From positions 2,972 to 66,971 of the forward strand of contig JAIORV010000097.1 in the NCBI GenBank assembly GCA_021107945.1: 64,000 bases of DNA, in the 5' to 3' direction. The translations under genes and the position numbers were made by a program. The DNA is from Vulcanimicrobiota bacterium. GTDB lineage: Bacteria; Vulcanimicrobiota; JAJTBE01. Positions 5,249-64,000 of this stretch are shown here, in pieces (position 1 is the stretch's first letter; every line of letters begins with the position of its first letter). The notes beneath the pieces were generated by a model. The model was not told where the DNA came from. It did no database searches and was given only the letters and a program-made list of their open reading frames with translations.

Positions 5249-5372
5249 GTATCTGATTTCTAAGTTATGACGGAGATTCCCTTTTATGTAATCAAGTCAG
5301 GTAAGATTCATGTTTTTTTATATCTATTCACCGCAAAGGGTGCAAAGGAGGACGGAAGCCAGAGACCAGAGG

Positions 5373-5654
5373 CCGGATGACGGAGGCAAGTTTCCTGGGC
5401 GTGGTGATATTGCCCGCGGCATGACCCTGAATTATGAGCTTGTCAAAACGGGATTAGCTTGGCAGTGGAAATATTCGAATTATCCGACCCTGGGGAAGTT
5501 GGAGAACGAAGCACGGAGATCACGGCAGGGACTGGCAGGGGAAGAATCCGATTCCACCTTGGGACTGGAGGAAGGGGAAAAGATAATATTTACGAAATTG
5601 CTTCTTATATCCAATAGAAATAGTCCAAAGAAAGGAGATAAATATGAATCCTGA
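5373..5654 (+). pseudogene. remnant of a staphylococcal-nuclease (SNase/thermonuclease)-like gene; only the C-terminal third is conserved and the N-terminus is replaced by a repeat word
   Basis: Translation DDGGKFPGRGDIARGMTLNYELVKTGLAWQWKYSNYPTLGKLENEARRSRQGL aligns by eye with the SNase C-terminus (DKYGRGLAYIY..NEALVRQGLAKVAY...AQAKKEKLNIW). The upstream part of the ORF (5327-5376) is ttcaccgcaaagggtgcaaagg repeat sequence. The catalytic N-terminal region is absent. Confidence 0.4.
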
Positions 5655-7522: not shown

Positions 7523-7778
7523 ACAATAATTTCGCAAAAGGTAGGAAGGGGGGATACTTTGCTTTTCCGGATAGTATTCATGCGGGTTCAAGTGGGTGAG
7601 CATGAAGTGGGCAAGCATGAAGTTGGCAAAATGAAGGGAGTGTGGGGCATCTTTAGGACAAAATGTTTCCAAAACAGGATAATACAGTGCTATTTTATAC
7701 CAAATACGACACGATTTTCTATAACTAAAAAACCCACCGTTTTCTTGAAATGGCGGGTTTTGTTATTGTTTTTGGGAT

Positions 7779-7851
7779 GGGCGGAGAGGGACTTGAACCC
7801 ACGACCTCCTGAATGTAAGTCAGATGCTCTAGCCAACTGAGCTACCCGCCC
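7779..7851 (-). tRNA. tRNA-Val (anticodon TAC)
   Basis: Reverse complement reads GGGCGGGTAGCTCAGTTGGCTAGAGCATCTGACTTACATTCAGGAGGTCGTGGGTTCAAGTCCCTCTCCGCCCA. It folds as a cloverleaf with anticodon loop CTTACAT. CCA is not encoded. Confidence 0.85.
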
Positions 7852-7959
7852 GATGAAAAAATGAAAAATTATCCTTTCCGGGTAATATTCTTTACGATTA
7901 TTTGCCCGGATTTGACAGGAAGGCAGGAATATTTCACCTGCCTCCGTCGATTGTAAAGT

Positions 7960-8032
7960 GACCCCAACGGGATTCGAACCCGTGATCTTCACCTTGAAAG
8001 GGTGATGTCCTAGGCCGCTAGACGATGGGGCC
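7960..8032 (-). tRNA. tRNA-Glu (anticodon TTC)
   Basis: Reverse complement reads GGCCCCATCGTCTAGCGGCCTAGGACATCACCCTTTCAAGGTGAAGATCACGGGTTCGAATCCCGTTGGGGTCA, with anticodon loop CTTTCAA. Confidence 0.85.
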
Positions 8033-8100
8033 GTTTTTTATACCAAAATTATTAACATTCCGGTGGATCTTCCACATAAAACAAAGGCCATCAAATAGGA

Positions 8101-8173
8101 TGGGCCCACCCGGATTCGAACCAGGGACCGATCGGTTATGAGCCGACTGCTCTACCGCTGAGCTATGGGCCCT
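8101..8173 (-). tRNA. tRNA with CAT anticodon (Met elongator or Ile2/lysidine type)
   Basis: Reverse complement reads GGGCCCATAGCTCAGCGGTAGAGCAGTCGGCTCATAACCGATCGGTCCCTGGTTCGAATCCGGGTGGGCCCA, with anticodon loop CTCATAA. The G1-C72 pair argues against an initiator. Confidence 0.8.
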
Positions 8174-8334
8174 CATGTCCTTTGACGCTGTTTATTATAA
8201 TGTAAAACATCCTCCAGGTCAATACCCATGACAAAAATATTTTACAACCAGGTTGACATTTACCCGGACAATGCCTTTAAATTCAACGCAGAGCTCGCAG
8301 AGACCGCAGAGGAGAACTAATAAATATCTGCGAT

Positions 8335-9665
8335 ATTTCCAATATTGAGTCATGAAGTGGGAAGTGGGAAATGGGAAAAAATAGAAATTTTGAGATTTTT
8401 CGATGTTCTTTTATCCGTTGTTCGTTTTGGGGGGTGCGGTGAAGAGAGAGAGAGCCACCGGGAAGACGCTGAAGCGCCTGTTTTTTATAGGGTTGTGTGT
8501 ATTCCCTTCTTCCCCCGGATAAATCCGGGGGTTAGTCTCATGGGAGATCTAAAAACCTCTCATGCCTGACCTCCATCCTCCAGCTTCCATATTCCGTCAT
8601 CCATTACCCTCTGCGTTCTCTGTGGTGAATGGGAAAAAGGAAAAGGGAAAAAAGGAAAAGACCGGGGTTTTGAGGTTTTTCGATACTCTCTTATCCGTTA
8701 TTATTCATTTTCTTCGTGACCTCCGTGGCTTCGTGGTGAATTCCATTCTCCATTCTCCGGACCCCTCTGTGTACTCTGTGCCCTCTGTGGTAAAAAAACA
8801 CTTGTCCTTCGAACCTCTTTGTGGGGTTTGTGGTGAATAAATAAATCTGTCATACATTTTTCACAATCCGTTTTATCGGGATTGGGAAATCCCTCCTACA
8901 GATCTAATCTTTCATGACATCTCCTCAACCTCCGATGGGGACTGGATTTCAGAGGTCAGGAGATGTCCCGGGACAAGGTCTTCAAGCTCCGTTGCTTTGC
9001 CTCGGACATCCGGTTTAGAGGTTTTTCAAATATATGGAAGGGGGAAATGAGAAGCGAGAAATGAGAAAAGAATTTCTCAACTCTCGTCTCCCGATTCTCT
9101 TTTCTTATTTCCACCACACCATTAACCTTCAGAATCTGGAAGCCTCTGAAGAGGCTAAGACGGCGTGGTTAAGCCATTCTCTCTCCACCACAATAAATTG
9201 TGGTGTTGTTCTAAAAAACAATTGCGGTGTTGTTCTAAAATTAATAGTTGCATTATTGTCAATGCACTCTAAATATCACATCCATTTCCATGTAAATGTA
9301 AATGGATATAAAGATTAGCCTACAGATCCGGGCTCGTATTTTTCTTCGTGTCCTCCGTGGCTTCGTGGTGAATTCTATCCTCCATTCTCCGGACCCCTCT
9401 GTGTACTCTGTGCCCTCTGTGGTAAAAAAACACTTGTCCTTCGAACCTCTTTGTGGGGTTTGTGGTGAATAAATAAATCTGTCATACATTTTTCACAATC
9501 CGTTTTATCGGGATTGGGAAATCCCTCCTACAGATCTGGGCTCTATTTTTCTTCGTGTCTGGAGCCTGCGCTGAACTTGTTTCAGTGTGTCTTCGTGGTG
9601 AATTCTATCCTCCGAATTCCTCTGCGATCTCTGCGTCCTCTGCGTTGAAAAACACATCCGAGCTG
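8335..9665. repeat. 1.3-kb mosaic array of short modular repeat words downstream of the tRNA cluster; includes two near-identical ~195-bp direct repeats (8710-8905 and 9343-9537)
   Basis: Contains catgaagtgggaagtgggaaatggg, ctccgtggcttcgtggtgaa, the CCCCCGGATAAATCCGGGGG palindrome, ccacaataaattgtgg+tgttgttctaaaa (twice), and ttatcgggattgggaaatccctcctacagatct (twice). The ORFs the track predicts here are low-complexity translations of the repeats. Confidence 0.8.
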
Positions 9666-9667
9666 TG

Positions 9668-11749: not shown

Positions 11750-11912
11750 GAATGCTTCTCCATTTTTTTGCTTCTTTTTCTTGTGTTTTTTTTACCACAG
11801 AGGTCACAGAGGTAATATCTTAAAACCCTCTGAAACGCCTTAAAATCAACATTTGGTAGTCCCCTAGAAAGATGGACTGAACAGTTACAAAATATGTTAT
11901 TAACCGAAATCT

Positions 11913-12404
11913 TCATTGTTTATTCTTTTTTACATAAGCTCTGTTCACCATAATAATGATAAATATCAGAAAAGCGAATAAAGGCAAGAAAAGAATTAAA
12001 ACAGGTATAATAATAACCGGATTCTTAATAGAGTATATTATGACTATCAGAATTTGGCCAAGGACTATAATCTGTGAATCCGTGCCAAGTAAATAACGAT
12101 CAGATATGTATGCCGTCAACTCCAAGTAAATGAAACTAACTAACGGAACACTCAAAATAAAATATATAATTGCATAAATTACTCCCATTAGTCTGAAACG
12201 GTAAATAATAAAAAATATCCCTGTAAGAATAGAGATAATAAGGAGAATTCCGAGGCAATTTGATAATATATAATACTTGGTACTCAGGGAGAATAGTATT
12301 GTAATGACAATATTTGATGTGATTATTATAAGTAAAGCGGGTAGGAATGAACGGAATTTACTTATAGGATCATTATAATCATTCTTCTCACATTCACTTT
12401 TCAT
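11913..12404 (-). CDS. hypothetical integral membrane protein (Ile/Leu-rich, about four TM segments)
   Basis: Long ORF that is hydrophobic throughout. Low-complexity composition, so it could be spurious. Confidence 0.35.
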   Translation of the reverse strand: MKSECEKNDYNDPISKFRSFLPALLIIITSNIVITILFSLSTKYYILSNCLGILLIISILTGIFFIIYRFRLMGVIYAIIYFILSVPLVSFIYLELTAYISDRYLLGTDSQIIVLGQILIVIIYSIKNPVIIIPVLILFLPLFAFLIFIIIMVNRAYVKKNKQ

Positions 12405-13463: not shown

Positions 13464-14864
13464 GTGAAACCTGACAGTAATTTTGAATACGAAATAGGGT
13501 TCTCCTCACATACCGGAAACGTGAAGGACTTAAACGAAGACAATTACTGTGCGGAGCGCAGGGAAGATCTCGACGGAGGATGGACGGCCATGCTCGCCGT
13601 TTCCGACGGAGTGGGAGGTTTTTCCCTTGGCGAAATTGCAAGTAAGATTGCAATAAACCATATGGAGAAATTTTTTAAGCTTGGCGAGTTCAGACAGATG
13701 TACGATGAAACGGAAATCATCGAGCCCCACAGGGTAATCCAGGAATTATATACCAGGATAAACCATATCATCCTCTCCATGGCTGAGAAAGAAAACCGGC
13801 AAGTGGGATGCACGCTGGCCTCCGGTCTTTTTTATGGGAACTCCGTTTATATTGCAGGTGTCGGCAACAGCAGAGCATATTTTATCAGGAACGGAGGCAT
13901 TAAAAAGATTACAGAGGATCAGTCGCCTCCCCTTACTAAAGTAAACCTGGATAAGCTTACATCCGATGAAACCCTGGATACCGGACGGAAGAATGGATAT
14001 CTGAATTCTCTGGGATCCGAGATTACACTCAAAGCTGATATTCATCATATAAACGCAGAAGACGGGGATATTTTCCTCTTCTGTACCGACGGGCTGTATT
14101 CACAAGTGGAAGAAATGGAGATCGTCAACACCGTCGCCGAGAACCCGACAATGCAAGCATTTTGTAATGCGCTTATAGACAGGGCAAACTTTGCGGGTGG
14201 AGCGGATAATGTTTCAGTGACGGCTCTGAGGATTTCACGAAAAAAGAAGACCCTCCGGAGTATCCTTGCAGGCAGGAAAAAGGGAGAAAGTTTCCTTACG
14301 CAGCCGGTTTTAATAATTGCAACTCTCATAGGAATATTATTGTTGCTGGTAGTACTGCTTATGGGGAAAAAATACCTTTTCAGTGAAAAGAGAAAAAAAG
14401 AACCTCACGACATTGTAGCTACAATGCCGGTAGGTCAAACAACTTCATACAACAGCATAACGCTGCAATCAAAAATTCCTCTGAATTATATCTATATAAA
14501 TAATGATAAAAAGTCGATTAAAGAGGATATTGTTACTTTTGAATTCGAAAACGATGACAATACGATAAAGATAATGCCCGACTTCAATAAAATTAAGAAA
14601 AAACCGAAGCTCTACACGCTGACCATGAGCGGGCTGAACAGGAACCTCACGGTTATTCAGGCAAGGAAAAACAAAATAACACTTAATTATGATACAGTTA
14701 CGGTTCACCTCACCGCAGGCTCCAAGATTGATTTCATAGCAAAAGAGGAGAGAACGGGCGAGAAATTCATATTGAGGGTCAATAAACTGGGAAGTCCTTT
14801 TATAATCAATATGAAAGCTGAGGAGAATGTTCAGGTGATGATATTGCCGGATAAGAAGAAGTAA
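13464..14864 (+). CDS. PPM/PP2C-family Ser/Thr protein phosphatase with TM segment and C-terminal extracytoplasmic domain
   Basis: GTG start. Motifs AVSDGVGG, FLFCTDGL and GGADNVSV match PP2C metal-binding motifs. A TM helix follows (VLIIATLIGILLLLVVLLMG). Confidence 0.8.
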   Translation: MKPDSNFEYEIGFSSHTGNVKDLNEDNYCAERREDLDGGWTAMLAVSDGVGGFSLGEIASKIAINHMEKFFKLGEFRQMYDETEIIEPHRVIQELYTRINHIILSMAEKENRQVGCTLASGLFYGNSVYIAGVGNSRAYFIRNGGIKKITEDQSPPLTKVNLDKLTSDETLDTGRKNGYLNSLGSEITLKADIHHINAEDGDIFLFCTDGLYSQVEEMEIVNTVAENPTMQAFCNALIDRANFAGGADNVSVTALRISRKKKTLRSILAGRKKGESFLTQPVLIIATLIGILLLLVVLLMGKKYLFSEKRKKEPHDIVATMPVGQTTSYNSITLQSKIPLNYIYINNDKKSIKEDIVTFEFENDDNTIKIMPDFNKIKKKPKLYTLTMSGLNRNLTVIQARKNKITLNYDTVTVHLTAGSKIDFIAKEERTGEKFILRVNKLGSPFIINMKAEENVQVMILPDKKK

Positions 14865-14884: not shown

Positions 14885-14995
14885 CAGGGGACGAGATCCT
14901 TCGCTGATTAATACATCGGAGGTAAGTAAAACCCGTCCTTGCCAGGATTTATCCAGGAATGGTAAAGATCGTATTCCGCTCAGGATGACACAGCA
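14885..14995. repeat. truncated copy (one end) of the MITE-like element family, in reverse orientation
   Basis: gatccttcgctgattaatacatcggagg is the reverse complement of 35391-35418. ccgctcaggatgaca is the reverse complement of the 35321 terminal repeat. The spacing between the two matches the full copy. Confidence 0.5.
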
Positions 14996-17113: not shown

Positions 17114-17224
17114 TACAATCACTCCTTATGGTATTTCTTTATTATGCCAGTGAAAATTTATTGATGAAAAAAGATAGCCTCCATTGTCAATCTATACAGG
17201 AATCTTTTTAAATAATTCCCCAAA

Positions 17225-17535
17225 CGTAGATTTTTTTTTTTTGATCTGCGGCGAGACGCCGCAGCCACCGGCATTGTTATAATGGTGGGGGCGGCGTCTC
17301 GCCGCCCAAACAAGGGGGATATGGGGAATGGGACATGGGAGTCGGGAAGCGGGATCCGTTCCCCTTTGTGGTCTTTGCAATGAAAAACAAATCCGTTATC
17401 GGGACGAGGACGTCCCTCCTATATGGGAAATGGGAAAAGTGATGTGGGAAAGGGGATCCGTCCTCCGTGTCCTTCGTGCCTTCGTGGTAATAAAAAATGG
17501 GATCAGGGCTCCGTTTATCGGGATTGGGAAATCCC
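17225..17535. repeat. mosaic repeat array: T-run, then the GCGGCGAGACGCCGCAG inverted-repeat element, then gggaa/tggga words, then two TTATCGGGA-hairpin-TCCCTCCTACAG modules
   Basis: ctgcggcgagacgccgcagccacc...ggtgggggcggcgtctcgccgc forms a 22-bp-arm inverted repeat. Modules follow at 17395-17430 (stem GGGACG/CGTCCC) and 17510-17545 (stem GGGATT/AATCCC). Confidence 0.8.
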
Positions 17536-17537
17536 TC

Positions 17538-18221
17538 CTACAGTTCTGATACCTGAACTTCGGCCTCAGGCTCTCCTGTCTCCGGCTCCTGACTTCCGGC
17601 ATCTTTTCCCTTGTCTTTATGGGGGATCTTTATGAATTTCATGATCAGGAACCCACCTATAAGTAAAGCCATAAAGGCAATTGTCAGGGTGTTAAAGTGA
17701 TGATCGATAAAGTACTGGATTTTCTCACCGAATATCATGATAAGACCGGCAACCAGGAAGAACCTTGCTCCCCTGCTTATCACCGTTACTATTACAAATT
17801 TCCAGAAATCGACATAAAAAACACCGGCAGATATGGCAAATACCTTGTAAGGTACGGGTGTGAACCCGGCTATCCCGATAGCCCATTCCTCGTATTTCTG
17901 GAAATAACCATGTATCTGTTCAACTCTCTCTTCTTTTACGAATTTCAGGAGGACAGGCTTTCCGCCCTTGATCCCGATAAAGTAACCCAGCATTCCGCCT
18001 GTTACGGATCCCACAAGACATATAAGCGCATATAAAAGCGCCAACTTCGGATTTGCCACGCACATTGCGACAAGCAGGAGGTCCGGTGGAACGGGAAAAA
18101 ACGATGACCCGGAAAACGCCAGAATGAGAAGGGCAATGGGTGCATACGGCGTCTGAGCCCACATGAGAACCCAATCTTTCAGCCAATGTATCCAGTCTAT
18201 TGCATTATGAAACAACTGCAT
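17538..18221 (-). CDS. DedA/YqaA (SNARE-associated, TVP38/TMEM64) family membrane protein
   Basis: FFPVPPDLLLV motif, about five TM helices, and a charged C-terminal tail. Confidence 0.6.
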   Translation of the reverse strand: MQLFHNAIDWIHWLKDWVLMWAQTPYAPIALLILAFSGSSFFPVPPDLLLVAMCVANPKLALLYALICLVGSVTGGMLGYFIGIKGGKPVLLKFVKEERVEQIHGYFQKYEEWAIGIAGFTPVPYKVFAISAGVFYVDFWKFVIVTVISRGARFFLVAGLIMIFGEKIQYFIDHHFNTLTIAFMALLIGGFLIMKFIKIPHKDKGKDAGSQEPETGEPEAEVQVSEL

Positions 18222-22057: not shown

Positions 22058-22074
22058 AAATCTGGCGGGTAAAT

Positions 22075-22480
22075 ATTTGAAGGATCAAAATTAACCGCAA
22101 AGAAGCAAAGAACGCAAAGTGGTCTTTGTGGTGAAAAAACAAATCCATTATCGGGACGAGGACGTCCCTCCTACAGATCTGGAGAATTCCAACCTCCGAA
22201 TCCCTCTGTGGTCTTTGTGGTCTTTGCGGTGAATAAACAAATCCGTCGTCCATTATTCGCAATCCGTTTATCGGGATTAGGAAATCCCTCCTATAAAGGA
22301 AAGGGGAAAGGGGACATGGGAAACGAGATCCATTATCCGTCATCCATTATCCATTTTCCAATATCCATTATCCGTTTGTCGAGATGGTCATACAGATTCG
22401 ACCTGCGTCATCAGTTTTCCGAATCCCTCCGTGTTCTCCGTGGCTTCGTGGTGAATGGAAAAAGAGAAAAGGGATTCTTC
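22075..22480. repeat. mosaic repeat array (ccgcaaagaagcaaagaacgcaaag words, two TTATCGGGA-hairpin modules, atccattatccg words)
   Basis: Modules at 22155-22190 (stem GGGACG/CGTCCC) and 22262-22300 (stem GGGATT(A)/AATCCC). ccattatccgtcatccattatccattttccaatatccattatccg lies at 22320-22380. Confidence 0.8.
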
Positions 22481-22485
22481 CTCCT

Positions 22486-25669: not shown

Positions 25670-27256
25670 CTATAATCGAGGCGATTCTCCCCGGGCTTCC
25701 GTCCCGAATCCCGAACCCCGAATTCCGAATCCCGGGTCCAATATATCAAGGGCATTGCGGTATATTGGAGCCACTTTAAAGAATTTGGTTCTCTTAATCG
25801 ATTTCTTGCCAACTTTCTGCAGAAAGCCTGCGTCCAGCAATTGCTTCAGGGCTTCATCCAGTACCTTGTCTTCATTTTCTAATTCCAATATCTCAATTAG
25901 ATCTTTCCTGGAGAATTTAACCTTTTCTTCCCCCCTGAAATACTCAACTTTCTCTCGTATATCCCTAAAAATGTTATAGAGGTAATCATTTAACTTGGAG
26001 GACGAAGCATCCTTCAGGCCAAAATCGACCGCTTCCCTCCCAATAATAGAGCCTTGATTGTCTCTCTTCCTGTTATACAAATCAATCTGGCTGTCTTTTG
26101 CTTTTCCCACAAAATTTAGCAGATCCCTGGGAGATATGTTTCCATGACCATCTTGCAGCCTGGAGAAAATATAGTCTCGTGTTGACACCTGACTTCCATC
26201 AGGGTTCTCATAATTCTTTCCAAAAAGCCATTCGAACAATTCAACCGCACTTTGCTCGGAAATACCATTCCCCCCATTATTGAGGAAAAACTGAATCCTC
26301 TTTGAAAGAAGCATTATGAGATGAGTATCATCCCATTCAATTTTCAAAACCTTATCAGAAAAATGATCCTTGTTTACAAAAGGAAGTTCATCATATATAT
26401 CATCTCTTATAAATATCTTCAGCTTTATGTATTCATGAATACGAAAATCTGAATAAGCAGTCATTAGTGTGCCCAGGATTTGTCTTTGATTGTCCCTGTT
26501 ACCCGATCCGGGCCAGGGATAGATTTCATCCACCCGGTCAAACAGTACCCAGACTTCGATAATGCCTTTCCCTTTCTCCCCTCTTGTGAAATTAATATCT
26601 TTCAAGACATCATCAATCAACCTGAGCAAAACACGCAGATTCTCTTCCTTTTCTTCAATGTTTTCATGAGGTGCTCTGAATTCAACGGTTCCTTTCGGCC
26701 CTTCGGGTAATTGAATTCCAAGGGATTTAATATATTTTGGAAGATTGCGAACAATTCCGGGGTCATGTTTATCTCCGGTATATAGCTTTAATTTTGATAG
26801 GTAATTTTCAAGCTTTGATGTATCGATGTTGTATTTTGTGTTATTGGAAATAAAACGTTCACCGATCTTCGAGGCTATATAGATTTCCCATAAGTGCGTC
26901 AATTCATTGTGTGAGTCGGATGTGTCGGGTATTTTGCCAAAACTCCTGACAGCTTCAGTAAATTTATTGAGCTCTCTTACCTCATTTGGGTCATCAATAA
27001 AAATAAGGATCTTGTCTGCGATTTCCGGAATTTCAGGATAATGGCCCTGTTTCTTTTTTAGGATCTGAATAATCGCGCTCTTACCGGAACCCTTTGGGCC
27101 TGTTATGATGCTTTTTCTCCCGGAAACCACTTCAAGAAAATCGAGAGTCTCATAGAAATATTCCGGGAGGTAATTATCATCCTCGGCATTTAAATCTCCT
27201 ATCCTCAATTTTCTCAGGAATTTGATCTTGCTTTCTTTTGTATTATATTGATCCAT
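25670..27256 (-). CDS. P-loop NTPase (Walker A GPKGSGKS near the N-terminus, hhhhDD 28 aa downstream) with ~400-aa uncharacterised C-terminal region
   Basis: SIITGPKGSGKSAI Walker A, ILIFIDDPNE and VWVLFDRVDE acidic motifs. The last ~18 codons (GFGIRGSGFGTEARGESP) are encoded by the cccgaatcccgaaccccgaattccgaatcccgg repeat. Confidence 0.6.
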   Translation of the reverse strand: MDQYNTKESKIKFLRKLRIGDLNAEDDNYLPEYFYETLDFLEVVSGRKSIITGPKGSGKSAIIQILKKKQGHYPEIPEIADKILIFIDDPNEVRELNKFTEAVRSFGKIPDTSDSHNELTHLWEIYIASKIGERFISNNTKYNIDTSKLENYLSKLKLYTGDKHDPGIVRNLPKYIKSLGIQLPEGPKGTVEFRAPHENIEEKEENLRVLLRLIDDVLKDINFTRGEKGKGIIEVWVLFDRVDEIYPWPGSGNRDNQRQILGTLMTAYSDFRIHEYIKLKIFIRDDIYDELPFVNKDHFSDKVLKIEWDDTHLIMLLSKRIQFFLNNGGNGISEQSAVELFEWLFGKNYENPDGSQVSTRDYIFSRLQDGHGNISPRDLLNFVGKAKDSQIDLYNRKRDNQGSIIGREAVDFGLKDASSSKLNDYLYNIFRDIREKVEYFRGEEKVKFSRKDLIEILELENEDKVLDEALKQLLDAGFLQKVGKKSIKRTKFFKVAPIYRNALDILDPGFGIRGSGFGTEARGESPRL

Positions 27257-33348: not shown

Positions 33349-33349
33349 C

Positions 33350-33935
33350 TATTTACCTCCTATTTATGGAAAATGGGAAATGGGAAATGGGAAATGGGAA
33401 ACGGGATGCGGGAAACGGGAGATGAGAAGTGGGAAATGGGATCCGGTCTCCGTTTTCTTTATTTCTTCACCGGGAAGCCACTGAAGTGGCTGAGATAAAG
33501 AGCAAGAAAAGGGTGGGATTTCCTTCTTCCCCCGGATTAATCCGGGGGTTAGTCTCATGGAGGTTTAAAAACCTCCGCTACCAAATTTCCGCTCTCCGCT
33601 ACCCGACCTCTGTAATCCGTTCTCCATTCTCCGTCAATATTCATTTTCTTCGTGTTCGGAGCCTGCCCTGAATTTATTTCAGGGCGGCTTCGTGGTGAAA
33701 AACAAATCCGTCCTCCGTATTTCAGCCTCTGATTTCCGTTTTCCGGCCTCTGGACTCTTTTATCCGTTCTCCTTTTCGAGCATTTTTTCCTGAAACCTTC
33801 CTATAGGCAAAAACGGCGGAGATTTAACCCGCCGTTTTTCTGAGAATATATTAACAATTTTTTATCCGTTATCTGTCATCCGTTATCCATTGTCCTTTTA
33901 TCGGGATGGGGACATCCCTCCTACAAATCCGTTAT
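33350..33935. repeat. mosaic repeat array occupying the position where pheS would be expected
   Basis: Contains tggaaaatgggaaatgggaaatgggaaacgggatgcgggaaacgggagatgagaagtggg, the gccactgaagtggc hairpin, the CCCCCGGATTAATCCGGGGG palindrome, the GGAGGTTTAAAAACCTCC palindrome, and the ttatcgggatggggacatccctcctacaaatccg module at 33895-33935. Confidence 0.8.
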
Positions 33936-33938
33936 CCG

Positions 33939-35271: not shown

Positions 35272-35590
35272 GAAAACCTATAACATAACTTACGCATTTC
35301 CAGGAAAGAAACGCATGAAATTGTCATCCTGAGCGGAATATGATCAGTTTACTTTAAAAAACAAACCTTTCTCAGGAACGGGGCTTGCATACCTCCGATG
35401 TATTAATCAGCGAAGGATCTTTTCTCATAGCGAATGATCTCCTTCAAGCAAATATTAAAGAGATTCTTCGCTATGTGAACCTTTGGAGATCAAGGAAATC
35501 CCGTCCTTGAGAAAGTCATTGGAGTAAAGTAACTCTCTCGTGTATCGCTCAGAATGACAATTGCGTAAGTCCTACTATAACATAACTATG
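35272..35590. mobile_element. MITE-like non-autonomous element: ~26-bp terminal inverted repeats (acttacgca..attgtcatYctgagcg) flanked by the direct repeat ctataacataact
   Basis: Left end ttgtcatcctgagcgg (35321-35336). Right end cgctcagaatgacaattgcgtaag (35545-35568). ctataacataact occurs on both outer sides as a TSD-like direct repeat. Homologous copies lie at 45395-45730, 14885-14995 and 52780-52945. Confidence 0.55.
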
Positions 35591-41781: not shown

Positions 41782-41784
41782 GGA

Positions 41785-42180
41785 AATAAGGACCGGGAGC
41801 GGAATAAGGAAATTAGAGAATGAGGAATTTTGCCGCTTAGGAAATTAGGAAACCAGGAAAACGGATAGCTGAGGACGGATCCCGTTTCCCGATTCCCGCT
41901 TCCCGCTTCCCGCTTCCAAAATGGTAGCGGAGGTTTTTAAACCTCCCATGAGAATAACCCACGGATTTATCCGGGGGAACAGGAGGAATCCCAATCCCCA
42001 TGTCTCTCACACAAACCTTCAGACGCTTCAGCGTCTTCCCGGTAAGGAAATGAAGAACTGTTACCTCTGAGGAAATGAGGAAATAAGGATTATGGAAACG
42101 GAGAATGGAGGTCGGAGGTCGGAGGTCGGATCCCATTTCCCACATCCCCTTTCCCACTTCCCTTATGGGAAACATATGAA
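41785..42180. repeat. mosaic repeat array between coaD and gmhA
   Basis: Contains ggaaataagga/ggaaattagga words, cccgcttcccgcttcccgcttcc, the GGAGGTTTTTAAACCTCC palindrome, ggatttatccggggg, and ggaggtcggaggtcggaggtcgg followed by cccatttcccacatcccctttcccacttccc. Confidence 0.8.
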
Positions 42181-42242
42181 TATCTGAAAATACATTGTAT
42201 GCCGTTTAATTTCACAACAACAATGGAAAGGTAAGGATAATA

Positions 42243-45394: not shown

Positions 45395-45730
45395 AACAGG
45401 CGATAGGAGTTACACATTTTGTCATTGCATACTCCTGAGCGGAAAACGATTATTTTACTTCACTTGATCAACCCTGGCAAGGAAAAATATACTATACTTC
45501 TGATGTCTTTCACAGCGAAGGATCTCACCCCGGCGTTTATGCTTCAAGATAATCCTCCTTCACTATTGAGACTTGCTCCCTCCAGACCATTGGAGTTTAG
45601 ATTCTTCGCTGTGTCAATTTGCGAGCATCAAATAAACCCCGTCTTGAGAAAGTCGTCGGAATCAAGTGTTTCATTCTTGATCCGCTCAGAACGACAGTTT
45701 GCATGCTCAAAATGACAAGAAGTCCCAGGG
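45395..45730. mobile_element. second full-length, more diverged copy of the MITE-like element
   Basis: tgtcattgcatactcctgagcgg (45420-45442) at one end. ccgctcagaacgacagtttgcatgctcaaaatgacaagaagtcc (45682-45725) at the other. The internal core (agattcttcgctgtgtcaa...cccgtcttgagaaagtcgtcgga) matches 35470-35520. Confidence 0.5.
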
Positions 45731-52556: not shown

Positions 52557-53111
52557 AAACTCAACTCCATTCTTCTTTTATCCCAACCATGCTAATTATA
52601 CAATAAAAAGGGACGAAATAAAAGTGTTGCTTATTAATTATTCTCCTGTCTATTTCTACAATTTTCCAGAAAAAACATTCCCATTTTTTGTTTGTATTTT
52701 GAATTATTTGCAAGAAATACTTCCAACTTTTCCTTTTCAACTCATATCTTTCACCGCAGAGGACGCAGAGAGCACAGATCTTAATTGAGCAGGACTTGCG
52801 CATTTTGTCGTTGCGAGGAGGCGAAGCCGACGAAGTAATGACAATATTCCCGGTAAAAAGTGCTAAACCATAGCTTAACATTGACAATGTTAATATTGGA
52901 ATAAAAACCCTGAATAGGCTGACTAAAAAGTGTGTTGAGTCATCCTGAGCAGGAATATTTTCCTTGAATATTTGTTGCAACATGTTATAACTCCACAAAA
53001 AAACCTGGCAACATATTCATCGGGGCGTTTGTTGTAAATTATCGAACGGCAGGAATTTATGACAAATTGAAAAAACATTGTCCTTGACTATTAATATTTA
53101 ATTTAAGGATT

Positions 53112-58154: not shown

Positions 58155-59336
58155 ATGAACGAAAACATTCAACAACTTATTACAAAGGCGGAAAGTCAAT
58201 TAAAACGCAGGGAATATCGTAATGCCAGGCTTCTCTTTCAGGAAGCGGCCATACTTGCCCGGGACGAAAGGGACTTCCCATCTGCCGCCGATAATTTTTA
58301 TGCCGCCGGGACTGTTTCATATAAAGAAGGCAATATTAAGGATGCTATAAAGAATTTTCAAAAGGCGGGGAAAATATATTATAAAACCGGTGATAAGGAG
58401 CACCTGGCGGATGCGGGCTTTAACATAGGAAAATTATATCAGGAAATTGGAAGGCCCGAGGAAGCGGTGGAGCACCTGCGTATGGCTTATGATGTATATA
58501 GAGAACGCGGGGATATTGAAGACCTTGGCGACGCCGGGTACAACCTGGGACTTGTCTATCTGGATCTCGACAACACACAGGACGCTTACGATCCATTTTT
58601 CACAGCACTTGATTATTTCGAGGAAATGCATGAGGATGAGAATTTTGCCGATTGCATCTATCAAATCGGGAAAATGTTTTACATGGGAGGAAATCCTTCA
58701 CCGGCAAGAGAGTATTTCACTAAGGCGGTTGAGTTGTTTGAAAAACTTGGAATTGAAGACAGCAAAGCCGACAGTCTTTTTAAACTGGGGAACATATTCC
58801 TGGATATGGAAAAAACCGAGAATGCCCGGGATTATTTTAAAAAAGCTTTAAAAATATATACAAAGCTTGGCGAGAAAAAATACATGGCAGAAACCCTCAT
58901 AAATATGGGAACTGCAGATGAAGCTGAGTGTAATAATGAATCCGCTCGGGATATGTATAAAAAGGCACTCTCGTTATTTACTTCCCTGGATGATGAAGAG
59001 GGCAGAGGAGATGCTTTTTACAACCTTGCTGCCATGGAAAATGAATCGGGCGATTTTATGGAGGCGCTCAAGTTATTCTCCCTTGGCATGTTCTCCTATA
59101 AAAAATCCGACAATTTAGAGAACGAGGGTGATTCAAACCTTAGAATCGCCGGGATATATCGCAGTATGAATGATATGGATAATGCACTCTTCTTCTATAA
59201 AAAATCTATGATCTGCTTTGAAAAGAGTAAGAATTATAACAGGGCTAAAGAAGTGAGGGAGTTGATGGAGAAACTGATGACGCAGAACGGAGGACGGATT
59301 ACGGAAACCAGAGGTCGGAGGTCAGATGATGGATGA
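58155..59336 (+). CDS. TPR repeat protein (at least eight TPR units); C-terminus encoded by a repeat word
   Basis: Regular A..Y/F.....G.Y..A...F.+A 34-aa periodicity. The last 15 codons (ggacggattacggaaaccagaggtcggaggtcagatgatgg) match the ggaggtcgg repeat family. Confidence 0.7.
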   Translation: MNENIQQLITKAESQLKRREYRNARLLFQEAAILARDERDFPSAADNFYAAGTVSYKEGNIKDAIKNFQKAGKIYYKTGDKEHLADAGFNIGKLYQEIGRPEEAVEHLRMAYDVYRERGDIEDLGDAGYNLGLVYLDLDNTQDAYDPFFTALDYFEEMHEDENFADCIYQIGKMFYMGGNPSPAREYFTKAVELFEKLGIEDSKADSLFKLGNIFLDMEKTENARDYFKKALKIYTKLGEKKYMAETLINMGTADEAECNNESARDMYKKALSLFTSLDDEEGRGDAFYNLAAMENESGDFMEALKLFSLGMFSYKKSDNLENEGDSNLRIAGIYRSMNDMDNALFFYKKSMICFEKSKNYNRAKEVRELMEKLMTQNGGRITETRGRRSDDG

Positions 59337-61539
59337 TGAAAAATGGAAAGTGGATCTCGTTTCCCCCTTCCCCCTTCCCCCTTCCCCCTTCGATATAACT
59401 CTTGTAAACATCGTATTCCCCACTGATATAGGCACAAAAAAATACTACTACGTACCCGTAGGCGTACTTTCCCTGGCTTCATTCCTGGAAGAAAACGGTT
59501 TCTCCGCCGAGGTCCTGGACTATCAGCACGCGGTACATCCCCAGCTCGATAAACCGGAGAGTTACTATGAATTTCTTCTGAAAGCTAAATCAGATATTAT
59601 CGGGATCAGTGTGATGGCAAAAGATATGCCCGGAGTGATAATTGCATGCCAGATGCTGAAAAAGAAATATCCTCATAAGATCATCATTCTTGGCGGGCCC
59701 GGCCCCACAGGTGTGGCGAGAAAGTTGATGGAAGAATTCCCGTTTATCGATTTCGTTGTCCGGGGCGAGGGAGAATATACACTTCTTGAGCTGATGAGGA
59801 CGGTTTGTCGGAAGTCGGAAGATAGAAAATGGATGATGGAAAATGGAGAATGGATGACGGAGAACGGATCCCCTTTCCCACGTCCCTTTTCCCATTTCCC
59901 TTATGGGGGGGATGTCCCCGTCCCGATAAACACTGACAACGACACGGAATCTGACATTTTTAAAAATATAAAAGGCCTTATATATAGAAAAGGCAGCAAT
60001 GTAAAAGTTAACCCACAAAGAGAACGCATTGAAAATATCAATAATCTTCCTCTCCCGGCCTATCACTTAATCAACCCCAATAAATACAACCTTGTTTATT
60101 TTCCATCCACAAGAGGATGCAGACATTTCTGCACTTTCTGCGATCAGCCCGCTCTTTGGCAGGGGAAAGAAATCAGCAAGTCTCCGGATAGTGTTTTTAA
60201 TGAAATCGATTATATTACAAGAGAATTAAATGCGAAATGGGAGGTTGCCTTTTCCGACAATGAATTCTGTGCGGACGAGGAAAGATTCGTGGAATTTTGC
60301 CGCCGATACAAAGATGGAGGGTACAGATTCCATTTTTCAATGGATCGAAGGATAGATTCAGTTGACGAGGATTTCCTGAAAGCCGCCCGCAGTGTCAATT
60401 GCCGCTTGACATTATACGGCGTCGAATCCGGAAGTGACAGAGTTTTAAAAGAGATTAGAAAAGGATTCAAAAGTGAAAACATAAAATCTTCCCTTTTGCT
60501 GTCAGCAAAATATATGGATAACACCATTGCATCATTTATGTTCAATTATCCTTTTGAAGAATTGCGGGACTTCATCGCCACGCTGAATATAATTTATTCA
60601 CTCTGGCATAAACCCACCAGAAATTTTATCACATTTCAACTTCATTACCTGTCTCCACTACCTCGTACCCCGATATTTGAGAAATACAGAGATACGCTTG
60701 TCAGGCGCGATGTCTCGAACATGATGATATCAGGGCAAAATGAAACGCAGTATGAACAAGTTATAGATTATGAGAAGAATAAAGTGGCCGTACTGGCGAA
60801 GGTGTTGACGGAGGACGGAGAACAGAGAGCGGATCCCGCTTCCCATTTCCCGCTTCCCATTTCAAGCATTGTTGACAAATACCCTGATATTTTTGTCCCA
60901 TATTATACATACAAATCACCAGATCTTGACGTGAAGGAACATCTCATAAAATGCCTATATGTCGCCCTTGAGATTGATTTACAAAACGTATTGTTTAGGT
61001 ATGGTGATAATTTTATATACTTCGGGCAAGAAGAGATAAAATTCGAGGGCAAATTCGAGGAGGAAAGAGCTGACACCGTCTATTTCAAGCTTACCAGGAA
61101 TTTCTTTGACAAACCGGAAAGACTCCTGAATTTTCTGAAATCCAAGGGAAATGAAAAATATATCCTCTTCTCCGTTGACCTTGAAGGCGTTCCTGAAGAC
61201 AGGGACACGGGAGACAAGCTTTGCCAATTCCTGGAAGACCTCCGTATGGAAGGATTCAAATTCAAGCTTCTTTCCCATATTCCCCGGAAATATTTCAGAT
61301 TTACCCGGTACCTGAAAATGGAATCACAATTCAACATGCCTGTGGATCCTATATCGGCGCATGATTTCTTCTATGTTGACGAAAAGGGAAGAGTGTGCAC
61401 ATTCGACGGAAATAAATTGGACTATGTATGGGAATATGAAAGCAGAGAAGAGATACAACAAGCTATAGATGAAAATGAGAACCGGGAAGAGGACAAAATT
61501 AAAGAAATTAGAAAAAAAGATACATGCTCAGAAAAATGA
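59326..61539 (+). CDS. B12-binding domain radical SAM enzyme carrying three in-frame repeat-word insertions
   Basis: B12-binding region (IIGISVMAKDMPG...IIILGGPGPTG...FVVRGEGE). Radical SAM cluster motif RGCRHFCTFC (CxxxCxxC). Repeat-derived segments lie at 59341-59396, 59815-59933 and 60808-60866 without breaking the frame. Confidence 0.7.
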   Translation: MMDDEKWKVDLVSPFPLPPSPFDITLVNIVFPTDIGTKKYYYVPVGVLSLASFLEENGFSAEVLDYQHAVHPQLDKPESYYEFLLKAKSDIIGISVMAKDMPGVIIACQMLKKKYPHKIIILGGPGPTGVARKLMEEFPFIDFVVRGEGEYTLLELMRTVCRKSEDRKWMMENGEWMTENGSPFPRPFSHFPYGGDVPVPINTDNDTESDIFKNIKGLIYRKGSNVKVNPQRERIENINNLPLPAYHLINPNKYNLVYFPSTRGCRHFCTFCDQPALWQGKEISKSPDSVFNEIDYITRELNAKWEVAFSDNEFCADEERFVEFCRRYKDGGYRFHFSMDRRIDSVDEDFLKAARSVNCRLTLYGVESGSDRVLKEIRKGFKSENIKSSLLLSAKYMDNTIASFMFNYPFEELRDFIATLNIIYSLWHKPTRNFITFQLHYLSPLPRTPIFEKYRDTLVRRDVSNMMISGQNETQYEQVIDYEKNKVAVLAKVLTEDGEQRADPASHFPLPISSIVDKYPDIFVPYYTYKSPDLDVKEHLIKCLYVALEIDLQNVLFRYGDNFIYFGQEEIKFEGKFEEERADTVYFKLTRNFFDKPERLLNFLKSKGNEKYILFSVDLEGVPEDRDTGDKLCQFLEDLRMEGFKFKLLSHIPRKYFRFTRYLKMESQFNMPVDPISAHDFFYVDEKGRVCTFDGNKLDYVWEYESREEIQQAIDENENREEDKIKEIRKKDTCSEK

Positions 61540-62201
61540 AAGAAAAAGACATACCGTTCGTTGTGGAATTGCATTCCGGATATATCCCCGGCGCGCTGTT
61601 TCCAAAGCTGGGAAATAAATTCATGCATGCTCTTTATCACACGATGATTGACATGGATTGCGCGGTAAATTACGTATGGGAAATAGAAGTTGAAGATTGT
61701 AGGAGGGACGTCCCCGTCCCGATAAACGAAGGTCGGAAGTCGGGAGCTCCGAAACATAGAGGAGAAGACAAGGAATCTGAAGCCAGAACCGTCGCATTTA
61801 TTACTGCAACAACCGACTCGTCAGTTCTTTTCCGACAGGTACTCATCAAGAATTTCCCGCTGTTTGTATGGAGAACATTTCTATATTTAATGGGAAATCC
61901 GCTAAGAATAAGAGAGGTCTGGGAAACGGTCACATACTCGAAACTGGCGAAAGTCCCCGATGTTACCGCCGAGCTTCTATTCATTGCAATAGATAAAAAT
62001 TTCCGCAAAAAAAGTATATCAGACGACCTTGTAAACAAATGTCTCCAATGGGCAAAAGAAAAAGGTCATAATAAAATAAAAGTAACCACGTATACAACTA
62101 ATCACGGGGCAAATACACTTTTGGAAAGACTTGGTTTCAAATGTGCAAGAAAAGAGCCCTTCCGCGACAAGGAAATAAATTTGTATGTCCATAATCTATG
62201 A
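61524..62201 (+). CDS. GNAT-family N-acetyltransferase with an in-frame ~30-codon repeat-word insertion
   Basis: ELLFIAIDKNFRKKSISDDLVNKCLQWAKEKGHNKIKV is GNAT motif A. 61698-61790 (aggagggacgtccccgtcccgataaacgaaggtcggaagtcggg...) is a TTATCGGGA-hairpin module translated as EDCRRDVPVPINEGRKSG. Confidence 0.65.
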   Translation: MLRKMKEKDIPFVVELHSGYIPGALFPKLGNKFMHALYHTMIDMDCAVNYVWEIEVEDCRRDVPVPINEGRKSGAPKHRGEDKESEARTVAFITATTDSSVLFRQVLIKNFPLFVWRTFLYLMGNPLRIREVWETVTYSKLAKVPDVTAELLFIAIDKNFRKKSISDDLVNKCLQWAKEKGHNKIKVTTYTTNHGANTLLERLGFKCARKEPFRDKEINLYVHNL

Positions 62202-62209
62202 CAGGGAAA

Positions 62210-62400
62210 TAAGGAATACCAGGAATATTGCCTCTCAGGAAATTAGGAAATAAGGATAACAGATAACGAAAATTTTTCACCACGAAGCCGCGGAGTATGT
62301 AGGAGCACACTATAATAGGGACGTCCTCATCCCGATAAACGGATAATAGAGGATGGATAATGGACGGCAGAGGATGGGCGGCGGAATTTCACTTCAATAT
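62210..62400. repeat. mosaic repeat array downstream of the GNAT gene
   Basis: ggaaataaggaa/ggaaattaggaaataagg words, ttcaccacgaagccgcggag, and a gggacgtcctcatcccgataaacgg module (stem with a G.T wobble). Confidence 0.75.
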
Positions 62401-62512
62401 AATACTTCTTAAAACTAATGTCCAAATTGAAATACGGAGGGCAACCGCTCTCCGCATTTAAAGAAAATATTTTAAACAGAATTTATTATAATGGATCGAA
62501 ACTTACGATTAA

Positions 62513-62908
62513 TCAGGAATTAAGTTTTCTCTCATCATACATATAGATTCCCTCTTGCTTGTTTACGACCACAGCCACTTCTTTATTCTCGCTTGTTGAT
62601 TTCATTGAAACCATTTCGGTTTCACTGTCCGGTATTCTGCCGTAGCTTGCCGTCTCTTCGCCATTTGGGTGTTTGTATGAAATCGACATATCCTGTAGCT
62701 TGTTCATCTGTCCAGGAAGGGAATCGTAGTGCAACTTGGCGTTGAGGGATGTAGTGTCTTCATTCTGGGTGATGACCACTGATCCTTTTTTGGGGTCCTT
62801 GTCTTCCTGTGTGTTGTCCTTTGCAATAAATTGTTTTGCAACAGCCTTGGTTCCCGCTAAGACCGTCAAAGCCTGTTCTTTATTGTTTGATATGCTTTCA
62901 TTTTGCAT
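62513..62908 (-). CDS. hypothetical protein (131 aa)
   Basis: Clean ORF that is hydrophilic and Lys/Glu/Thr-rich, with no motif. Confidence 0.3.
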   Translation of the reverse strand: MQNESISNNKEQALTVLAGTKAVAKQFIAKDNTQEDKDPKKGSVVITQNEDTTSLNAKLHYDSLPGQMNKLQDMSISYKHPNGEETASYGRIPDSETEMVSMKSTSENKEVAVVVNKQEGIYMYDERKLNS

Positions 62909-63678
62909 TATATTTTCCTCCAGCCTATATTTTAGAATTTGAAACTATCGAAATTACAACTATATTATAGTCCGCATTGCGAGGAACATCAATTAACAAA
63001 ATGTAAACAATTGCTATATTATTGTTAAAAAAAAGGTAACTATTCACCGCAGAGGGCGCAGAGAGCGCGGAGAGAAGAAAAAGAGGAGAACTTTCATATA
63101 AGTACTTACGCAAAATGAGGAGTGAGTCCTGTCATACTGAAACAAGCCTGCCCTGACGAAGGCCAGGGTTCAGCACAGGTTTCTGAGCGGTACAAGAAAG
63201 AACGTAAGCATTCAGTCCTCCCTTGCAGGAGTAGCATCTTGCCACGAAAATCGAGGCTGGAAGCCTCTCCTTCAGTGATGGGTCTGAATAAATACTTAAT
63301 TTTTATACTCGAAAATCGGTATTCAGAATTTAGTGAATAGCAGACAATGCTTCTAATCCTCTGCGCCTGCACTGAGAATTCTCTGATTTATCTCTGTGCT
63401 CTCTGTGTTCTCTGTGGTAAAAAAACATAGGGGCTGAACAGTAACAAAAAAAAATTTTAAGTGTAGGGACTGCGAAAAATCGATAATGTCAAAATAAATT
63501 CATGAATCTATAGAAGGGAATGTTGCATAGCTAAAGAATTAATTATCTATACTCCCAAAATATGACACAAAGGCTCAGATTAGGACTGAATTATAGTATC
63601 TATATGCAGGGATCACCAGTTCTTGCTCAAGCAAATGACAAAATAGCGGGAGTATATAAAAAATGAGGAGGGATATGT

Positions 63679-63996
63679 ATGTTTGCCACAATTGTAACCG
63701 TAAAGATTAAACCGAAAAAATGGGAAGAAGCCTGGAAAATGGGAGAAAAGAGAGCCAAAGAGCAGACTCAAATTCCGGGGATGAAGGGCTATTTTGTAAT
63801 GTCCGATCTCAAAGCTCACAAAGTTGTGAAAGTTGTCTTATGGGAATCGGAAGAAGTCATGAAAAAATATGCCGAAAGCAGCGGAGTACACGAAGCCATG
63901 GAACAATCAGAAAAATATCTTGCAGGACCAATGGAGATAGTGAATCTTCCGGTGGTAGCTTCGAGCTTTTCTGATACCCCTGTATCGGTTATGTAA
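63679..63996 (+). CDS. ABM (antibiotic-biosynthesis-monooxygenase-like / Dabb) domain protein
   Basis: About 100 aa with the ferredoxin-like ABM pattern (TVKIKP...W...PG.KGYFVMSD...VVKVVLWESEE..K.). Confidence 0.45.
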   Translation: MFATIVTVKIKPKKWEEAWKMGEKRAKEQTQIPGMKGYFVMSDLKAHKVVKVVLWESEEVMKKYAESSGVHEAMEQSEKYLAGPMEIVNLPVVASSFSDTPVSVM

Positions 63997-64000
63997 ATCC

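Follow-up and report, generated by a model that had tools for sequence, protein, structure and literature searches.

Several kinds of short bacterial repeat can lie inside protein-coding genes. Rickettsia palindromic elements (RPEs) are selfish repeats found in-frame within unrelated housekeeping and metabolic genes, whose products thereby gain peptide segments at positions compatible with the protein fold (Ogata et al. 2000, 2002, per PMC10969869). GTAG-tagged repetitive extragenic palindromes (REPs) may also be intragenic, where they encode 20-82 aa; some are found at the N-termini of open reading frames (ORFs), and their tags can supply stop codons (Di Nocera, De Gregorio & Rocco 2013, PMC3733652). 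[quoted passage not shown] G-rich heptameric tandem repeats have been described from Xanthomonas (GGGAATC) and from Nostoc (GGGGA(C/T)T) (Rehm et al. 2015, PMC4692102), and the four-heptamer elements of Geobacter metallireducens occur 'within genes ... as well as between genes' (PMC2700814). Here we analyze a stretch of 64,000 nt (hereafter, the window) from a contig of an uncultured bacterium, in which repeats built from heptamer arrays and a GTAG-tagged hairpin are found both between genes and inside two adjacent genes, one for a B12-binding radical SAM protein (rSAM) and one for a GNAT acetyltransferase (GNAT).

We consider it likely that repeat modules have entered coding DNA in this genome and persist there as in-frame passenger peptide segments of host genes. 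Since in-frame insertions of REPs, RPEs and MITEs are already documented, the window extends a known phenomenon; what is new is the little-studied uncultured lineage and the unusual composite architecture. An earlier reading of this DNA (the original prediction) had compared the repeats to RPEs while setting them apart as a distinct family. The comparison was borne out, in that alignments and structural models place lineage-specific, repeat-derived, in-frame insertions at loops and termini. The hairpin, on the other hand, is not a new kind of family, as its sequence layout is that of a GTAG-tagged REP.

The window hairpins share with GTAG-tagged REPs (PMC3733652) a 6-bp stem with a 4-nt loop, preceded by an unpaired GTAG tag and a dinucleotide spacer and followed by a 3-nt tail (GTAG-1/2 type), as well as subfamilies with alternative complementary stem residues and a mostly intergenic location near the 3' ends of ORFs, with some copies wholly within ORFs and coding for 20-45 aa. 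They differ from GTAG-tagged REPs, and from the REP/REPIN systems associated with REP-associated tyrosine transposases (RAYTs) (Bertels & Rainey 2011, PMC3116915), in being single or in direct tandem rather than forming inverted doublets. Unlike GTAG-tagged REPs, they are also embedded in tandem arrays of 7-, 8- and 9-nt units, the DNA examined here yielded no RAYT gene, and the host lineage, represented by a metagenome-assembled genome (MAG) labelled Eremiobacterota, lies outside the phyla described.

The other described systems match the window in part. As with RPEs, insertion into rSAM and GNAT is in-frame and at structurally permissive sites, but RPEs, by their published description, are palindromes of ~100-150 bp that each encode a conserved peptide, whereas the window inserts are mosaics of 7-nt units and a 30-nt hairpin whose peptides, apart from DVPVPIN, vary between copies. 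Like the heptamers of Xanthomonas, Nostoc and Geobacter, the arrays are dispersed 7-nt repeats with G-tracts, mainly intergenic near ORF ends and occasionally intragenic. In contrast to those heptamers, the window units are heterogeneous, are arranged as purine-rich and pyrimidine-rich halves around GGATC(C), and are joined to REP hairpins. Finally, the window elements resemble MITEs as small non-autonomous repeats that can fuse in-frame with ORFs, but no terminal inverted repeats (TIRs) and no clear target-site duplication (TSD) were identified in them. A literature search using the literal repeat sequences returned nothing relevant.

Results

Intergenic repeat modules recur inside two adjacent genes

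We used a 10-mer census to compare the coding and intergenic DNA of the window, which has a GC content of ~43% and, in the gene map of this analysis (~46 genes), is ~21% intergenic. Only rSAM and GNAT shared long internal stretches with intergenic DNA, at 59837-59900 and 60834-60863 in rSAM and at 61697-61728 in GNAT (features in Table 1). The internal insertion of rSAM, its second repeat segment and hereafter insert 2, was 80% identical over 70 nt to the intergenic reference composite at 42085-42166, and the third rSAM segment was 75% identical over 53 nt to the neighbouring composite at 41862-41925, both in register around GGATCC. The hairpin in GNAT was a perfect copy of the hairpin unit described below. 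Array-plus-hairpin composites occur as near-copies at intergenic and genic sites, and the genic copies are in-frame, stop-free and located in loops or at termini. These matches, together with the orthologue alignments, confirm that repeat modules lie in-frame inside genes, as had been predicted.

Table 1. Repeat elements of the window and the genes that contain or adjoin them.
Feature	Position	Strand	Remarks
TPR gene	58155..59336	+	Pfam TPR matches end by aa 372; last ~17 codons (59283-59336) are repeat array
Composite heptamer array, TPR-rSAM junction	59283..59396	+	~9 G/A-rich 7-mers, GGATCTCG centre, (TTCCCCC) x4.4
rSAM gene (B12-binding radical SAM)	59326..61539	+	737 aa, intact; Pfam B12-binding aa 37-156, Radical_SAM aa 261-421
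rSAM internal insertion (insert 2)	59815..59949	+	aa 164-208, ~45 aa: 8 G/A-rich heptamers, GGATCC, 4 TCCC-type heptamers, degenerate REP hairpin GGGATGTCCCCGTCCCGATAAAC
rSAM third repeat segment	60808..60866	+	aa ~495-513: heptamers, GGATCC, heptamers; alignment columns 501-525
GNAT acetyltransferase gene	61524..62201	+	225 aa, intact; Pfam Acetyltransf_1
GNAT 72-nt (24-codon) insertion	61688..61759	+	flanking heptamers, REP hairpin TGTAGGAGGGACGTCCCCGTCCCGATAAAC (61697-61726), GAAGGTC GGAAGTC units
Composite heptamer-GGATCC-heptamer element, intergenic reference copy	42085..42166		neighbouring copy 41862-41925
Two intergenic REP hairpins, direct tandem	17396..17543	+	17396-17423 and 17515-17543
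Other intergenic REP copies (starts)	8873, 9505, 20653(-), 22148, 22268, 33898, 62318(-)		genic starts 59909, 61705
P-loop/AAA-like gene	25670-27256	-	weak Pfam AAA/P-loop match
Heptamer array (GGGATTC type) in the P-loop gene	25673..25740	-	encodes C-terminal ~20 aa (DPGFGIRGSGFGTEARGESPRL) of the P-loop/AAA-like protein
SNase remnant ORF, 5'-truncated	5310..5653	+	114 aa; Pfam SNase positions 47-104 of 107, E 3.5e-5

The rSAM protein, which is 100% identical to an NCBI protein encoded on an 89-kb contig of a MAG labelled 'Candidatus Eremiobacteraeota bacterium', was aligned with 16 orthologues (38-56% identity, 604-696 aa). Residues ~164-208, encoded by insert 2 between the B12 and radical SAM domains, were missing from 14 of them. 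The remaining two carried a different palindromic module at the same loop, a TTTCAGCCGGCTGAAA-type palindrome in both P0006 (L002 10001-12091) and P0002 (L012 3795-5852); P0006 also carried a 9-mer-like array at a second rSAM site. All of these inserts are in-frame and repeat-derived. We asked whether the residues 'YRDGD' of P0006 are encoded by the opposite strand of the window REP, and rejected this at the level of the DNA, which is a 9-mer-like array (TACAGAGATGGAGAC...). A blastn search of insert 2 against plasmids gave no match. The third segment aligned to a variable acidic linker of the orthologues with a net gain of only ~+5 aa, and is thus mostly a replacement rather than a pure insertion. 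Of three insertions predicted to separate the recognizable regions of rSAM, the second stands as described, the third largely rewrites a linker, and the first is an N-terminal extension that does not lie between domains.

In GNAT, the insertion was missing from all 14 orthologues compared. An alignment with the DNA of the closest of these, L001 (85% nt identity), showed a single clean 72-nt gap. The predicted GNAT insertion is thus present and lineage-specific, although the range originally assigned to it, 61698-61790, is slightly shifted from the alignment gap, 61688-61759. The YVWE and FIT motifs lie 63 nt apart in L001, but 72 nt further apart in the window (135 nt) and 99 nt further apart in a third locus, L011 (162 nt), both additions being divisible by 3. 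The L011 gene (P0124, 3357-4100) carries 14 GGANNNC heptamers in this same loop, the first unit starting exactly at the conserved TGG-GAA-GC (W-E-A) codons, and the window insert begins after the same TGGGAA.

L001 differs in its surroundings: GNAT adjoins a class I aminoacyl-tRNA synthetase gene (Pfam tRNA-synt_1c) there, so the adjacency of rSAM and GNAT is not conserved. Two L001 regions, 11883-12126 and 13742-13904, contain the same repeat families as the window: heptamers (ACCTCCG and TCCGTTA), octamers (TTTCCTAA) and, at 12010, a copy of the REP.

The repeat-encoded peptides were found in 0 of 303 homologues compared, which speaks against their being ancestral protein sequence. Peptides predicted to span insert junctions include ...CRRDVPVPINEGR... 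and ...SPFPRPFSHFPYGGDVPVPINTDNDTESDIFK. The alignment check proposed with the original prediction thus returned lineage-specific indels in both proteins.

The common starting point of the two GNAT arrays raises the question of whether genic arrays were copied in at all. They might instead have grown in place, by slippage or gene conversion from GA-rich, heptamer-like codons, with only the hairpin being mobile. In addition to the shared TGGGAA, the orthologues are acidic (GAR-rich) both in the GNAT loop and in the linker that was replaced in rSAM, the array units are heterogeneous, as slippage followed by mutation predicts, and no TSD or TIR was seen. However, insert 2 matches the whole of the composite at 42085-42166, including its asymmetric GGATCC centre and its CTTATGGG end, which argues for copying of a pre-formed unit, and heptamers added in place would keep the frame only in three-unit steps. 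We regard growth in place as less likely than not for the genic arrays.

The hairpin unit and its orientation

The hairpin unit reads TTATC-GGGAnn-NGGA-nnTCCC-TCCTAC, or GTAGGA-GGGAnn-TCCY-nnTCCC-GATAA on the other strand. A GTAG tag and the dinucleotide GA lead into a 6-bp stem closed by a 4-nt loop, and a GAT tail follows the return stem; the whole measures ~30 nt with flanks. Seven copies of the module TTATCGGGACGGGGACGTCCC were found in the window at ≤3 mismatches, as compared to 0.01 expected, and a slightly looser pattern found 12 copies in the 64 kb, 10 of them intergenic. The order GTAG-GA-stem...stem-GAT(AA) was followed in 10 of these 12; the rSAM copy (TATGGGG) and the one at 62318 have degenerate tags. 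Tandem copies lie ~120 bp apart (17396/17515 and 22148/22268). Several other genomes contain the unit together with a second one in inverted orientation, GTAGGAGCGGYTTCCYARCCGCGAT.

Among all copies collected, including those outside the window, which were drawn from loci L004-L043, 45 of 54 were Watson-Crick at both of the unconstrained stem pairs. Eight stem variants were represented (TT/AA, CG/CG, CT/AG, CA/TG, GC/GC, CC/GG, TG/CA and TC/GA) between invariant flanks, so that the stems covary. An exact-pattern genome scan found the hairpin core, among the matches listed, in MAGs labelled WOR-3, Stahlbacteria and Poribacteria and in an uncultured bacterium, and a metagenome scan in which the inner stem was left free found it on 30 contigs with 33-60% GC. 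Thus, the core is not lineage-specific. The pattern had 0 matches in viral contigs. At gathering thresholds, Rfam reported only three tRNAs in the window and no family matching the hairpin, and the 38 fetched loci of other organisms yielded no convincing further intragenic REP copies.

Read GTAG-first, the hairpin has a single open frame, which encodes CRRDVPVPIN. Both genic copies are read in this frame, and as a result DVPVPIN is common to the rSAM and GNAT proteins. GTAG-first was also the orientation on the sense strand of the host gene or of co-directional flanking genes in 8/8 unambiguous window copies and in 4/5 copies elsewhere (L001, L005, L006, L009 and L010). This bias suggests either a role at the RNA level or strand-biased insertion.

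Heptamer arrays are poor in stop codons

A small set of modules makes up, in mosaic fashion, the intergenic regions 8173-9667, 17123-17537, 22058-22485, 33349-33938, 41782-42211 and 62202-62512. The usual plan of the 7-nt tandem arrays is a G/A-rich run (GGGAAAT, GGAGGTC, GGAGAAC...), then GGATC(C) as the centre, then a run rich in C/T (TTTCCCN...). Tandem Repeats Finder (TRF) reported many period-7 arrays in the window, and also periods 14 and 21, all intergenic or at gene termini except for the internal blocks of rSAM and GNAT. Matches to GGAGGTCGG at ≤1 mismatch numbered 36 in the window vs 9.8 expected. Other intergenic arrays consist of 8-nt units, such as TAAGGAAA, or of 9-nt units, such as CGCAGAGAC or GTGGTCTTT. 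GGATCC itself was rejected as an enriched site, with 29 occurrences in the window vs 26.9 expected, 8-9 of the 29 being array centres.

Of 102 array frames, 78 were open; random window segments gave 54.8 +/- 4.2 open frames and shuffled versions of the arrays 54.0 +/- 3.8. As a consequence of this stop-poverty, mechanically called ORFs run on into arrays at gene ends.

Region 8173-9667 is a 1.5-kb stretch without genes, made almost entirely of repeat modules. It adjoins three tRNA genes (7778-8172, minus strand) and holds an internal duplication of ~200-270 bp (8708-8905 and 9336-9605). A separate dispersed repeat of ~100 nt, with the conserved ends GTCATCCTGAGCGGAA ... CAGCGAAGGATCT, was found at 35320-35424, at 45430-45527, at 14894-14989 (reverse) and, in part, at 52939-52959, every full copy being intergenic.

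A repeat array provides the start of rSAM

The array at the TPR-rSAM junction encodes the C-terminal 17 aa of the TPR protein and the N-terminal ~22 aa of rSAM. The GGAGG of a GGAGGTC unit (59317-59321) forms the rSAM Shine-Dalgarno sequence, and 4-7 nt further on a GGATGAT unit contributes the ATG (59326/59329). The DNA that separates the array from the protein's conserved first strand, DITLVNIVFPT, has no ATG, GTG or TTG, so that translation of rSAM must begin within the array. Most orthologues begin M-K-Q-F-D-I-S-L, and the window protein has 18 extra N-terminal residues, which 14 of the 16 orthologues lack. Codons 12-22 of rSAM are the (TTCCCCC)x4.4 run at 59361-59391, a perfect array with 100% matches in TRF. 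As in phase-variable loci, it is a perfect simple sequence repeat (SSR) inside a 5' coding region, with a unit length not divisible by 3. On the template strand, (TTCCCCC)n reads (GGGGGAA)4, a possible G-quadruplex, and the array could frameshift by slippage.

These features allow that the repeats may have been taken into use, as functional linkers or tails, as mRNA hairpins with an effect on translation or mRNA stability, or as a phase-variation switch in the case of (TTCCCCC)x4.4. The array gives rSAM its Shine-Dalgarno sequence and start codon, it is perfect at the 5' end whereas the internal arrays are degenerate, SSRs near N-termini have been linked to phase variation (PMC4692102), and an independent contig (L013) breaks inside the 5' array. 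The GTAG-first bias points the same way. On the other hand, four copies are few for slippage to be efficient, contigs can be expected to break at repeats in any case, and the insert peptides are unconserved in any orthologue. Unrelated inserts at the same loops across lineages also fit permissive sites better than selected function. It is therefore unlikely that the inserts serve such functions.

Repeat-encoded termini and the integrity of the host genes

Two further genes were predicted to end in repeat-encoded tails, and the sequence agrees in both cases. Homologues of the P-loop protein (best 59% identity) stop at query residue ~507, and its tail extends ~20 aa beyond. The TPR tail is repeat array by DNA sequence; no TPR orthologue closer than 29% identity was found, and this tail is a candidate addition. 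The SNase ORF, as predicted, is truncated at its 5' end, its Pfam match covering only part of the domain. Its first ~22 codons, at the truncated end, are 9-mer/heptamer repeat DNA. This remnant fits the view that repeat insertions may also accompany gene truncation.

The rSAM and GNAT genes are intact. In rSAM the CxxxCxxC motif (C265/C269/C272) is retained along with ~90 further invariant columns, and its 737 codons are free of stops and frameshifts. Outside the insert, GNAT has a dN/dS of 0.084 relative to L001, with dS (1.27) near saturation. AlphaFold (AF2) models of the two proteins each had a mean predicted local distance difference test (pLDDT) score of 83, and Foldseek matched the rSAM model to the cobalamin-dependent radical SAM enzymes OxsB, MgmA, TsrM and TokK and the GNAT model to GNATs. 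In the rSAM model, pLDDT below 50 was limited to aa 1-18, 164-208, 275-277, 496-506 and the last three residues, and in the GNAT model to aa 62-84, values that are partly circular at the inserts because the alignments have no homologous columns there. Despite this, the placement of the inserts between modelled secondary-structure elements remains informative: insert 2 falls between helix 150-172 and strand 218-222 of rSAM, and the GNAT insert between strands 47-55 and 87-96, in a beta-hairpin loop. The proposed structural check thus gave inserts between secondary-structure elements with pLDDT <50.

Reading insert 2 as a boundary between separate B12-domain and radical SAM genes was ruled out, since it contains no stop in frame and the two domains are fused in every orthologue. 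As for an intein or intron, the rSAM and GNAT inserts are just 24-45 aa of repeat DNA, and Pfam gives only the B12-binding/Radical_SAM and GNAT domains.

The original prediction allowed that the genes might tolerate the repeats or be undergoing inactivation by them. If the latter, rSAM and GNAT would be pseudogenes in early decay, with frames kept open only by the stop-poor arrays. Such arrays do make an open frame weaker evidence of selection than usual. Four repeat blocks cluster within these two adjacent genes, rSAM has lost its native start region, and the truncated SNase, with repeats at its broken end, represents gene loss near repeats. Against decay, every insert length keeps the frame, the CxxxCxxC motif, the invariant columns and the low GNAT dN/dS are retained, the inserts avoid secondary-structure elements, and the array offers a strong GGAGG Shine-Dalgarno sequence with an ATG. 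We consider decay very unlikely. Both proteins look functional from their sequences and models, which favours tolerance of the repeats over inactivation.

It is also conceivable that the genic repeats are mis-joins, formed in a metagenome bin by assembly through dispersed repeats. Dispersed repeats do break contigs, and the second contig, L013, which comes from an ENA SPAdes assembly, has its start within the (TTCCCCC)n array. However, L013 is 100% identical to the window over 59373-64000 (4,628 nt), including three inserts, which argues against a chimeric assembly, and at every insert the sequences on either side are parts of one gene, share one frame and follow the order seen in the orthologues. 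An assembly artefact is thus extremely improbable.

Discussion

Our preferred explanation is that intergenic modular repeats, both the heptamer arrays and the GTAG-tagged hairpin, would occasionally be copied into genes, singly or as composites. A copy would survive if its added length is a multiple of 3, if it is read in a stop-free frame, and if the site is a surface loop, an inter-domain linker or a terminus; selection would presumably remove all but the frame-preserving copies at permissive sites. The outcome would be passenger peptides, presumably disordered: ~45 aa plus a rewritten linker in rSAM, 24 aa in GNAT, and the repeat-encoded termini. The hairpins may spread by means of a RAYT-like enzyme. 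The arrays may spread or grow by slippage or microhomology at GGGAA or GA-rich (acidic-linker) codons, as suggested by the two GNAT-loop events that start at the same TGGGAA and by the acidic nature, in orthologues, of the rSAM linker that was replaced. The inserts are probably translated and roughly neutral.

Several observations weigh against this explanation, besides the partial circularity of the pLDDT values. Translation of the inserts is something that we infer. No RAYT or other transposase was found among ~40 window ORFs, nor by a crude HUH/Y motif scan of the fetched loci. No clear TSD or TIR was seen, the sole candidate being a possible 7-8-nt imperfect direct repeat, A(A/C)ATAGA, at the GNAT junctions. 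The nearest rSAM orthologue is ~55% identical, and none of those compared is an empty-site allele from the same species. RNA folding of the composite arrays was no better than that of dinucleotide shuffles (z = -0.99, +2.68, -2.07 and -0.80). These unremarkable scores (-2.1 to +2.7) rule out the arrays as long stable hairpins, and the composites are thus not the strong palindromes that RPEs are.

The distribution of the hairpin core permits a broader reading. A single REP family may be present in at least five phylum-level lineages (33-60% GC) and, in the lineage of the window, be fused with stop-free arrays so as to act as a general donor of gene parts, with the 5' array of rSAM as a possible on/off switch. 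Such a family may have a fixed GTAGGA tag, TCCY loop and GAT(AA) tail around a freely covarying stem, may be read GTAG-first on transcripts, and may donate a Shine-Dalgarno sequence and start codon, C-terminal tails and loop peptides. We put this forward as an unlikely reading: if it is true, an ancient or horizontally spreading RAYT-like system would be remodelling protein termini and loops in uncultured phyla.

The persistence of such segments has practical consequences. ORF callers run genes through stop-poor arrays, so that lengths and termini in databases include repeat segments, as for the 737-aa rSAM compared with orthologues of ~650 aa. Repeat-derived segments can also mislead alignment, domain-boundary calls and structure prediction.

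The presence of different repeats at the same loops across lineages indicates that the B12-radical SAM and GNAT folds contain naturally permissive insertion sites. Selfish repeats that become part of proteins are known from the RPEs of Rickettsia and from proteobacterial and verrucomicrobial REPs; the window extends this phenomenon to a poorly known uncultured lineage and to a composite of heptamers and REP.

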